Shown here: positions 1 to 959 of the stretch, piece after piece | Layout of the letters: each line of letters begins with the position of its first letter | Numbering within the stretch: position 1 is the stretch's first letter | Sequence record: GS874857.1 | Reading direction: 5' to 3' (one strand) | Origin: a phage | Length of the DNA: 959 nt | Position numbers and translations under genes: made by a program | Notes under the pieces: model-generated | The model's input: only the letters and a program-made list of their open reading frames with translations | What the model was told of the DNA's origin: nothing | The model's database searches: none

Positions 1-34
1 GACGACTACATTAATTCACTTAAGTAATGTTACC

Positions 35-57
35 GGGAGACTTCGGTCTCCCTATTT
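35..57 (+). terminator. Stem-loop GGGAGAC-UUCG-GUCUCCC followed by UAUUU; putative intrinsic terminator of an upstream gene and/or stabilising 5' hairpin of the downstream mRNA
   Basis: Read directly: 35-41 gggagac and 46-52 gtctccc are perfect reverse complements (7-bp stem, 5 G:C pairs) closed by the tetraloop ttcg (42-45), giving the classic C(UUCG)G motif; followed by tattt (53-57). The U-tract is short and interrupted, so terminator efficiency is uncertain. It sits between a possible upstream stop (TAA 25-27) and the SD of the next gene. Confidence 0.45.
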
Positions 58-70
58 GGAGGAGAGGAGA
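58..70 (+). promoter_or_regulatory. Ribosome-binding site (Shine-Dalgarno) for CDS 76-618
   Basis: Purine-rich tract ggaggagaggaga with GGAGG at 58-62 and GAGG at 64-67; 8 nt between GAGG(64-67) and the ATG at 76. Confidence 0.7.
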
Positions 71-75
71 ATATT

Positions 76-618
76 ATGAGTTTATATGATGACCTGATAT
101 CAAATATTGATTGGTTTAAACATAGCGGTCTTTCCCATGAAACTAATGCAGTTCTTTATAGAATTCGCCAAGACCTAGGTTATTCCAATGATTTCTTAAG
201 TCGAACAAGTAGCCATGGACACACTACCAAATTGCCCTTTATCTTCGCTTTAGCTGAAGACCTTTCTTTTGCAGAAGCTTTAGAAATTATTGACGTAAAT
301 CTGGGTATTCAACGAGTGGAATTCGCTGGATTATGCTATTCAGTATACGCTTTAAATGAACCAAGTGATTGTAAACAGCTTGTTGATGCTGACGATGATT
401 ACCATTTAGTATGCTATTTGATGTTAGAAAATGGTGACCACTTTGGTATGGTCGACCGCCGCCCGAGTTATTCGGATATTAAAAATTACGATAAAGATGA
501 GCTTATTATTTTGGCTAATGAGTATACATCAGAGATTCGAAAACAACAACGGAAGCTTAATCGTTTTATTGCTGAATGTCGCGAATACGCTAAAGAGGTT
601 CAAAATGGAACGGCCTAG
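76..618 (+). CDS. Hypothetical protein, 180 aa, acidic, predicted cytoplasmic (no signal peptide or TM segment); function unknown
   Basis: ATG at 76 preceded by a strong SD; 181 stop-free codons in AT-rich DNA, where stops are frequent in non-coding frames; stop TAG 616-618. By hand count about 30 Asp/Glu versus 18 Lys/Arg (net charge near -12), including an acidic patch DADDD (residues 104-108, nt 385-399) and a basic C-terminal tail (residues 155-173, nt 538-594, RKQQRKLNRFIAECREYAK). No Walker A, HEXXH, CxxC or other catalytic signature that I recognise. Confidence 0.8.
   Translation: MSLYDDLISNIDWFKHSGLSHETNAVLYRIRQDLGYSNDFLSRTSSHGHTTKLPFIFALAEDLSFAEALEIIDVNLGIQRVEFAGLCYSVYALNEPSDCKQLVDADDDYHLVCYLMLENGDHFGMVDRRPSYSDIKNYDKDELIILANEYTSEIRKQQRKLNRFIAECREYAKEVQNGTA
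592..598 (+). promoter_or_regulatory. Ribosome-binding site for CDS 605-859, embedded in the 3' end of the upstream CDS
   Basis: aaagagg at 592-598 (GAGG 595-598), 6 nt upstream of the ATG at 605; it lies within the last codons of gene 1, which is typical of translational coupling. Confidence 0.6.
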
Positions 619-859
619 TCTTTCATCACATGTTTATCAATTGGCTGAATATGATATTGCTATTTCCTTATTTATGGGAATTGTCACCGGTATGCTAGGA
701 GGTTTGGTTGGTCTGGTAATGACCACGGTTATGGCGGCAATCGAAGGAGTCACGCCTATTGAGATGGGTTTTTATATGATAATCGCTCCGGCTGTCGTGG
801 CTTATTTATCCCTGTTGTGTATGATATTTGCCATACAACGCTTTGATGCTCCATCGTAG
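605..859 (+). CDS. Small integral membrane protein, 84 aa, two predicted transmembrane helices with a glycine-zipper motif in helix 1; function unknown
   Basis: The ORF-track frame is open from 431, but the first ATG with an SD is at 605 (the M of FKMERPSL, residue 59 of the track ORF). Translation from 605: MERPSLSSHVYQLAEYDIAISLFMGIVTGMLGGLVGLVMTTVMAAIEGVTPIEMGFYMIIAPAVVAYLSLLCMIFAIQRFDAPS; stop TAG 857-859. Hydrophobic stretches at about residues 18-46 (nt 656-742) and 54-77 (nt 764-835) are separated by the short loop EGVTPIEM. G25xxxG29xxxG33 and G32xxxG36 lie at nt 677-712. Overlaps the stop of gene 1 by 14 nt (605-618). Confidence 0.7.
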   Translation: MERPSLSSHVYQLAEYDIAISLFMGIVTGMLGGLVGLVMTTVMAAIEGVTPIEMGFYMIIAPAVVAYLSLLCMIFAIQRFDAPS

Positions 860-890
860 AGATATGCTTAGAGATGCTATATATGAGCAT
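858..890. repeat. Short tandem near-repeat (AGAGAT[AT]GCT x2) overlapping a 5-bp inverted repeat (ATGCT-N7-AGCAT) immediately after the stop of gene 2; possible operator or promoter-associated element
   Basis: Read directly: 858-869 agagatatgctt and 870-879 agagatgcta share AGAGAT..GCT with a 2-bp indel; 874-878 atgct and 886-890 agcat are reverse complements flanking atatatg, which contains a TATATAT stretch (878-884) preceded by TG (875-876), weakly resembling an extended -10. The elements are short and could arise by chance in AT-rich DNA. Confidence 0.3.
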
Positions 891-959
891 GTAAACAACT
901 AACGTATGACTGAAATCTTATAGATGTAATCATGATAAATGAATCGAATCCAGAACAAC

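Follow-up and report, generated by a model that had tools for sequence, protein, structure and literature searches.

The window, by which we mean the whole stretch of 959 nucleotides analysed here (GS874857.1), can with high confidence be identified as DNA of the T4-like coliphage IME08/IME341 that carries local versions of the early genes e.5 and e.3. A base-by-base comparison gave 100% identity between positions 1-803 and phage IME08 (NC_014260, Dhakavirus), which bears out the phage origin proposed in the preliminary description, and the best megablast matches of the window were IME08 and IME341, all being T4-like coliphages of the genus Dhakavirus. The locus lies between e.6 and e.2, in a variable stretch that has the tRNA genes on one side and e, the gene for lysozyme, on the other. 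Our explanation as a whole, namely that these are IME08-like e.5 and e.3 early genes, that the end of the window carries a read-end artefact and that the two products serve as accessory factors at the inner membrane of the host, appears probable; its identity part is held with high confidence and its functional part with low confidence. The features of the window, with their coordinates, are as follows.

1-27, plus strand: 3' end of the e.6 homologue (…INSLK, stop TAA at 25-27), from the IME08 and JS10 annotation and the translation.
35-52, plus strand: hairpin GGGAGAC-TTCG-GTCTCCC of the C(UUCG)G type, followed by TATTT, between e.6 and gene 1, from sequence and fold.
65-69, plus strand: Shine-Dalgarno site AGGAG of gene 1, six nt before the ATG at 76, from the sequence.
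76-618, plus strand: gene 1, encoding an acidic cytoplasmic alpha+beta protein of 180 aa (phrog_8788), a diverged homologue of T4 e.5.
595-598, plus strand: Shine-Dalgarno site GAGG of gene 2, within the last codons of gene 1, from the sequence.
605-803, plus strand: gene 2, codons 1-66, intact, encoding the N-terminus, the first transmembrane helix (TM1), a short periplasmic loop and most of TM2; assigned as the T4 e.3 orthologue.
804-959, plus strand: corrupted stretch with the remainder of gene 2 and the start of the next gene, from the comparison with IME08.
933-935, plus strand: TGA to which the true stop of gene 2 corresponds, from the comparison with IME08.
932, plus strand: ATG start of the next gene, an orf123 homologue, garbled in the window.

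The two open reading frames on the same strand, each with a Shine-Dalgarno site of its own, and the 14-nt overlap between them (605-618) had been noted before and are real according to the sequence. The end of the window is a different matter. Its last 156 bases (804-959) differ from IME08 by 31 one-base deletions and by no substitution at all, and once both sequences are run-length encoded they are the same over 704/704 runs. Before position 804 none of the 172 runs of at least two bases was changed, and after it 29 of the 36 such runs were exactly one base shorter than in IME08. Homopolymer shortening of this kind is what results when base-calling deteriorates towards a read's end, and it is implausible as biology. 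The first deletion, in which a run of four T becomes three at 804, changes the reading frame of gene 2 from codon 67 onwards, and the stop at 857-859, the length of 84 aa and the last 18 residues of that reading are therefore artefacts. The out-of-frame residues 67-84 of the 84-residue reading are LSLLCMIFAIQRFDAPS, the true C-terminus is FIPVVYDICHTNALNAPIRKRYALEMANYNEHVKQTKRNDLEIFIKECKS, and the intact gene 2 in both IME08 and JS10 encodes 117 aa ending in …AYFIPVVYDICHTNALNAPIRKRYALEMANYNEHVKQTKRNDLEIFIKECKS. In the family alignment, conservation is highest in the very C-terminal segment that the window's gene 2 has lost; the unreliable last 156 bases led to an inferred protein with a wrong length and with errors where the family is conserved best. 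Of the earlier account of gene 2, the start at 605 and the two transmembrane helices stand; the product of 84 aa, its stop and its characterization as almost entirely two transmembrane helices give way to a protein of 117 aa that also has a tail.

By sequence comparison and gene order, gene 2 is assigned as the orthologue of T4 e.3 (phrog_2330). Its start at ATG 605, with the GAGG at 595-598 lying six nt upstream, is preferred over an in-frame ATG at 431 since all homologues begin with M-x-[KR]-P and are 114-117 aa in length. The full-length IME08 protein matched the phrog_2330 profile from residue 1 to 117 against positions 1-122 of 122 (E 1.8e-45), the frameshifted reading frame of the window matched only from 1 to 71 against 1-76 of 122 (E 6.3e-19), and T4 e.3 itself matched with an E value of 2.9e-57. 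BLASTP aligned gene 2 with T4 e.3 over the whole length at 20% identity (E 2e-9). In addition, gene 2 occupies the place of e.3 in the gene string from e.6 to e.2, and T4 e.4 (phrog_2604) is a more distant paralogue. Hydropathy analysis located hydrophobic segments at residues ~17-49 and ~51-77 with a short acidic loop between them, and in the intact protein the two transmembrane helices are followed by ~43 residues of charged tail containing 8 K/R. On hydropathy and charge, it is predicted to be a helical hairpin in the inner membrane whose N- and C-termini both face the cytoplasm, the C-terminal helix being basic and conserved.

Gene 1 runs from the ATG at 76 to the TAG at 616-618, and its product of 180 aa agrees with the soluble, acidic protein with a basic C-terminal tail that had been described: its pI is 4.82, acidic residues outnumber basic ones by 30 to 18, and the last 30 residues are net basic (K/R = 7, D/E = 4). 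A long C-terminal helix bears the sequence …RFIAECREYAK. A profile search assigned this product to phrog_8788, which is restricted to Dhakavirus, Gaprivervirus and one metagenomic contig. All relatives found in a collection of 5.8 billion proteins were at least 79% identical to it, and an exhaustive profile search of 1.84 billion representatives returned only its own cluster and a single 29%-identical protein, P0042.

When compared directly with the T4 e.5 profile (phrog_2607), gene 1 gave a match limited to residues 158-177 (E 0.017), with a domain-wide match absent, and BLASTP against T4 e.5 aligned the last 15 residues and nothing more. Because gene 1 reaches the e.5 profile directly in its tail only, the homology to e.5 rests on transitive and contextual evidence. 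The hhalign comparison of gene 1 and e.5 returned a probability of 76.8% (E 2e-5) over 102 columns, and the two proteins were colinear in a full-length MAFFT alignment with 18% identity. P0042 matches both phrog_8788 (1.5e-17) and, over its full length, phrog_2607, the family of T4 e.5 (4.2e-8). An AlphaFold model of gene 1 built from its own family alone had a pLDDT of 39.7, and a model built with P0042 and seven e.5-family sequences reached a pLDDT of 72.8 and a pTM of 0.71; the best structural matches of the gene 1 model in BFVD were uncharacterised proteins from other T4-like phages. The synteny also agrees, as the order e.6, gene 1, e.4, e.3 in the Gaprivervirus SP18 parallels e.6, e.5, e.4, e.3 in T4. 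Four independent lines, transitive and contextual and each moderate alone, thus identify gene 1 as a very divergent T4 e.5 homologue, less directly than gene 2 is identified with e.3. More than 80 published T4-like genomes already list the products of both genes as hypothetical proteins, and the genes are known, uncharacterised members of the T4 e.5 and e.3 families, and the suggestion that the pair might be undescribed is hence withdrawn for gene 2 as well as for gene 1.

A promoter scan revealed a near-consensus early promoter, TTTACA-17-TATAAT, upstream of e.6, which fits the T4/PST early-promoter consensus TTTACW-N17-TAYWAT (PMC4122927). The same scan found no promoter between e.6 and gene 1, including the stretch after the hairpin at 35-52. 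This hairpin falls outside the PeSL definition, being a stem-loop without an early promoter directly behind it, and judged from its fold it is unconvincing as a terminator. Given that the promoter lies only upstream of e.6 and that the hairpin makes no convincing terminator, the pair belongs to a longer early polycistronic unit, and the co-transcription and tight translational linkage of an acidic soluble protein and a two-helix membrane protein are upheld. The long early transcript would start at the promoter before e.6 and run through gene 1 and gene 2 into the small genes downstream. For T4, omics data class e.4 and e.5 as early RNA and early protein and e.3 as early RNA and late protein (PMC9697503 supplements), and a genome-wide knock-down lists e.2-e.8 as 'Not Fit', meaning that fitness was unaffected (PMC11879866 supplement).

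The products of gene 1, gene 2, IME08 e.2 and T4 e.5, e.4 and e.3 all carry the motif F-[IV]-x-[ED]-[CS]-[RK] at their C-terminal ends. The tails read …LNRFIAECREYAK… in gene 1, …LEIFIKECKS in gene 2 and …LNSFIEECRK in IME08 e.2, and in T4 they read …LEKFVKECREYVK… in e.5, …IMKFVKESRCKS… in e.4 and …MKEFVIDCRKIK in e.3. Within the early region of T4 (1-73 kb) the motif is found in 3 of the 164 open reading frames, all three occurrences being the C-termini of e.5, e.4 and e.3. A C-terminal F-[IV]-x-E-C-[RK] is a cluster-specific motif of e.5, e.4, e.3 and the Dhakavirus e.2.

In five of seven cases, the motif codons double as the Shine-Dalgarno site of the next gene, and it is the K-E/E-E codons (AAGGAA, AAGGAG, GAGGAA) that do so in gene 2, T4 e.4, T4 e.5, SP18 e.4 and IME08 e.2. 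The conservation of the motif may thereby lie partly at the RNA level rather than in a protein interface. Taken further, this double use speaks for an explanation with no functional link at all, in which a hyperplastic region houses ORFans independent of one another and the motif is only the protein trace of a reused ribosome-binding and junction cassette. Such an explanation draws further support from the e.4 cassette being missing exactly between two such junctions and from published work on T4-type phages, in which modules are shuffled where short boundary sequences are conserved (PMC2839356, PMC4122927). It has to contend, however, with gene 1, which keeps the motif despite the loss of its Shine-Dalgarno site (GCTGAA) and despite a next start displaced downstream by 27 nt, and with T4 e.3, where the Shine-Dalgarno site lies in the C-R-K codons, not in K-E, and F-V-x-D-C-R is still kept. 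The codons vary as well, the basic residue being encoded by CGC, AAA, AGA, CGA, AGG or CGT and the Cys by TGT or TGC, which argues for conservation at the protein level, and none of the remaining 161 open reading frames in the early region of T4 has the motif, coupled junctions being found there too. Since the motif is kept where the same codons hold no Shine-Dalgarno site, and in varied codons, a protein-level constraint probably acts on it as well, and we judge it unlikely that the genes lack a functional link.

The preliminary description had instead proposed a dedicated, stoichiometrically coupled two-component module for superinfection exclusion, abortive infection, a holin/antiholin-like function or toxin/antidote action, in which the soluble protein controls the membrane protein. 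The gene co-occurrence bears on this proposal in both directions. Gene 1 and gene 2 are adjacent and overlapping in 18 of the 27 genomes listed in both tblastn searches, the same arrangement recurs in the only distant relative (a contig, L005, with a gene 1 homologue followed by an overlapping e.3-like open reading frame), and the C-terminal motif is common to both proteins. However, 9 of the 27 genomes listed in both searches carry an insert of ~340 nt between the two genes that encodes an e.4-type membrane protein, phage VR7 has e.4-e.3 with gene 1 missing, and the gene order in T4 is e.5-e.4-e.3. The junction itself is not specific to gene 1 either. The 14-nt overlap behind e.4 in SP18 and VR7 is the same as that behind gene 1 in the window, the two SP18 junctions having A[AG]G[GA]GGTTCnnAATG in common, and the IME08 junction is a composite of the SP18 gene 1 tail through GTTCAAAATG and the SP18 e.4 tail starting at AATGGAACGGCCTAG. 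The 14-nt overlap therefore belongs to the e.3 start, whatever gene lies upstream. Also, overlapping junctions are frequent throughout this region, and the overlap is thus weak evidence of a partnership. Most simply, Dhakavirus lacks the e.4 cassette that T4 and Gaprivervirus carry; the junction is the standard one before e.3, and it came to follow gene 1 through the absence of that cassette.

The allele classes of the two genes are likewise discordant between phages. By tblastn, MX01, Bp7 and vB_EcoM_005 are 94-96% identical in gene 1 and 54-58% in gene 2 (95.6% and 54% for MX01), whereas JS10 and JS98 are 85% identical in gene 1 and ~95% in gene 2 (95.7% for JS10), a pattern that shows gene 1 and gene 2 recombining independently. 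A sliding comparison of IME08 with MX01 located the difference, with 95-100% identity outside the true coordinates 621-860 and 40-70% inside them. This stretch corresponds to codons ~5-85 of gene 2 and extends from the N-terminus through the two transmembrane helices with their loop, so that a 240-bp cassette encoding the transmembrane hairpin has been exchanged within gene 2, the cytoplasmic tail staying constant. The swap of the hairpin could represent neutral recombination instead of selection for specificity.

Comparisons with known families likewise speak against the proposed module. Neither gene product was matched in Pfam, NCBIfam, PADLOC or the PDB, and with a cutoff of E up to 1 no PADLOC-DB family was hit by gene 1, by gene 2 or by T4 e.3, e.4 and e.5. 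Holin, antiholin and lysis-regulator families of Pfam and PHROGs were not among the matches, and no toxin family was matched; the early transcripts of the T4 homologues also stand against a holin or lysis reading. The likeness to holins, toxins and defence systems that had been put forward accordingly finds no counterpart among the families searched. A resemblance in size to T4 Imm had rested on the artefactual 84 aa. Gene 2 was unmatched at E up to 10 to the Imm families PF14373 and phrog_1039, to which T4 Imm itself matches (7.2e-16 and 1.5e-31, respectively), and BLASTP of gene 2 against T4 Imm aligned hydrophobic segments only (E 0.017), which is noise. With the timing of the T4 proteins differing as well, late for e.3 and early for e.5, we consider a dedicated module quite improbable: the adjacency of gene 1 and gene 2 is common, and the pair is neither obligate nor a fixed module. 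A nucleotidyltransferase or RelA-SpoT synthetase fold, for which a significant structural match together with catalytic acidic/basic motifs was sought and not found, was rejected as a candidate.

Our preferred explanation remains that of IME08-like e.5 and e.3 genes expressed early, the products of which would act, soon after infection begins, as accessory factors at the inner membrane of the host. In general terms their most likely role is an accessory one at that membrane, in exclusion or in host interaction. The F-[IV]-x-E-C-[RK] helix in their cytoplasmic tails probably links the e.5, e.4, e.3 and e.2 proteins, either by joint assembly or by one common partner, and specificity probably resides in the swappable transmembrane hairpin of e.3, be it for excluding related phages, for competing with them or for contact with a component of the host envelope. 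It can be speculated further that e.5, e.4, e.3 and e.2 of T-even-type phages form one membrane-associated assembly, the soluble and hairpin subunits of which would be tied together or to one host target by the common C-terminal helix, with the e.3 hairpin as an exchangeable specificity cassette for related-phage exclusion or competition or for countering envelope-based host defence, a proposal that we regard as doubtful in this specific form.

Much of what is reported here is ordinary, in that the two genes belong to the T4 e.5 and e.3 families, which are early-expressed and can be dispensed with under laboratory conditions. What is new is that phrog_8788 has been tied to T4 e.5, that a cluster-specific tail motif is common to soluble and membrane proteins, and that a transmembrane-hairpin cassette has been precisely swapped. 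We contend that the e.5 link, the tail motif and the hairpin cassette together provide a testable handle on an old block of 'dark matter' genes of T-even phages.

Among known genes, the closest counterparts are those of T4 itself. T4 e.5 (NP_049741, UniProt P39223, phrog_2607; PF26876 in precomputed annotations) resembles gene 1 in its position after e.6 and in its similar size (202 aa against 180 aa). Both have in common D/N-x-x-[IV]-x-x-x-x-F…S-V-x-x-L-N-[DE]…D and a tail of the form …[RK]F[IV]xECREYxK; unlike T4 e.5, gene 1 sits in a separate PHROG, 8788. T4 e.3 (NP_049739, UniProt P32274), annotated as a 'conserved hypothetical, predicted membrane protein', has 120 aa against the 117 aa of gene 2, and both start with M-x-K/R-P, contain two transmembrane helices and lie downstream of e.6/e.5(/e.4) in the early transcript. 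The cytoplasmic tail K-x-Y…Y-N…F-[IV]-x-[ED]-C-[KR] is found in T4 e.3 and in the intact gene 2 alike. Dhakavirus differs from T4 in that its e.3 gene directly follows the e.5-like gene, with e.4 absent, and in that the transmembrane part of its e.3 occurs in two allele classes that are ~53% identical.

The likeness to T4 Imm is one of type, as Imm and gene 2 are both small early inner-membrane proteins of T-even phages with two hydrophobic segments. They differ in that the true length of gene 2 is 117 aa and not 84, homology is lacking, and T4 possesses both imm and e.3; an exclusion role for e.3 comparable to that of Imm is conceivable by analogy. At the level of the locus, the region resembles the hyperplastic regions of T4-type phages (Arbiol et al., 2010, PMC2839356; Comeau et al., 2014, PMC4122927), being variable and rich in small early open reading frames. 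As with PeSL elements, stem-loops and TTTACW-N17-TAYWAT promoters are found beside neighbouring genes, and cassettes are gained, lost and replaced where short conserved sequences mark their borders. Unlike those of PeSL elements, the boundaries seen here are junctions of coding sequence and ribosome-binding sites, and one of them lies inside gene 2.

A C-terminal motif, F-[IV]-x-[ED]-[CS]-[RK], is common to the soluble and the membrane proteins of the e.5-e.2 cluster, and it overlaps in part with the Shine-Dalgarno site of the gene that follows. The motif was located as follows:

window 559-576: in gene 1 (e.5)
true C-terminus of gene 2 (e.3): in the membrane protein
IME08 (L001) ~11595-11612: in e.2
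T4 (L004): in e.3, e.4 and e.5

Across T4 1-73 kb, 3 of 164 ORFs have it, namely e.5, e.4 and e.3, each time at the end.

Bases 1-803 of the window are identical to IME08, whereas window 804-959 differs from it by 31 one-base deletions and no substitution, every deletion shortening a homopolymer (or AC) run. This pattern is consistent with a low-quality read end; the deletions also garble the beginning of the following gene (ATG 932). The GenBank record of IME08 sets the start of orf124 (gene 2; L001 6431-6958) at an upstream in-frame ATG at window 431, giving a 188-nt overlap with gene 1, and that of orf125 (gene 1; L001 6073-6618) at an ATT at window 73. Both starts look mis-set on comparison with the JS10 annotation, which places them at 605 and 76, in agreement with the homologues. 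Precomputed annotations assign all T4 e.5 relatives to PF26876.1. Given that the Pfam copy searched here does not return this family even with T4 e.5 itself as the query, the lack of a match to it for gene 1 is uninformative.

Upstream of gene 1, in the window and further upstream in IME08, hairpins and promoter-like sites with the T4-type early consensus TTTACW-N16/17-TAYWAT were found:

window 35-52: GGGAGAC-TTCG-GTCTCCC, a hairpin with a C(UUCG)G tetraloop, after the e.6 stop and before the Shine-Dalgarno site of gene 1
L001 4519-4540: similar hairpin, AAAGGAGAC-TTCG-GTCTCCTTT, ahead of a promoter-like site
L001 5363-5391, 4906-4934 and 4576-4603, + strand: three promoter-like sites

The three consensus sites lie upstream of e.6, orf127 and e.8, each after an intergenic gap; no promoter stands behind the hairpin at window 35-52.

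Directly downstream, orf123, orf122, orf121 and orf120 of IME08 (L001 6955-8197) lie in tandem and encode small acidic proteins of one family, all ending in W-V-S-S-S-x-x-C (stop) except orf120, whose end is different yet similar; orf123 matches phrog_899. The counterpart region in the metagenomic contig L005 spans 1054-1548. At 700-1341 of this contig (Logan SRR23924977), which carries the only distant relative, the e.3-like ORF runs on in frame into an orf123-like ORF (…FIEECKMSKIEIAI…), and the two together make 211-213 aa; the fusion is either real or the product of misassembly at the ATGA junction.

The membrane gene itself is mosaic. Between IME08 (L001 6621-6860) and MX01 (L010), identity is just 40-70% within a cassette of ~240 bp, which codes for the e.3-like protein from its N-terminus through TM1 and the loop to TM2, while the flanks on both sides are 95-100% identical, and two allele classes of this cassette occur in Dhakavirus. 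Dhakavirus lacks an e.4-type membrane gene that T4 and Gaprivervirus have, as seen when window 580-620 is compared with the following:

SP18 (L007) 1155-1514: e.4-type membrane gene
VR7 (L003) 2248-2514: e.4-type membrane gene

The endpoints of this deletion or insertion have A[AG]G[GA]GGTTCnnAATG in common, so that the overlapping start junction of e.3 stays the same with e.4 or without it.
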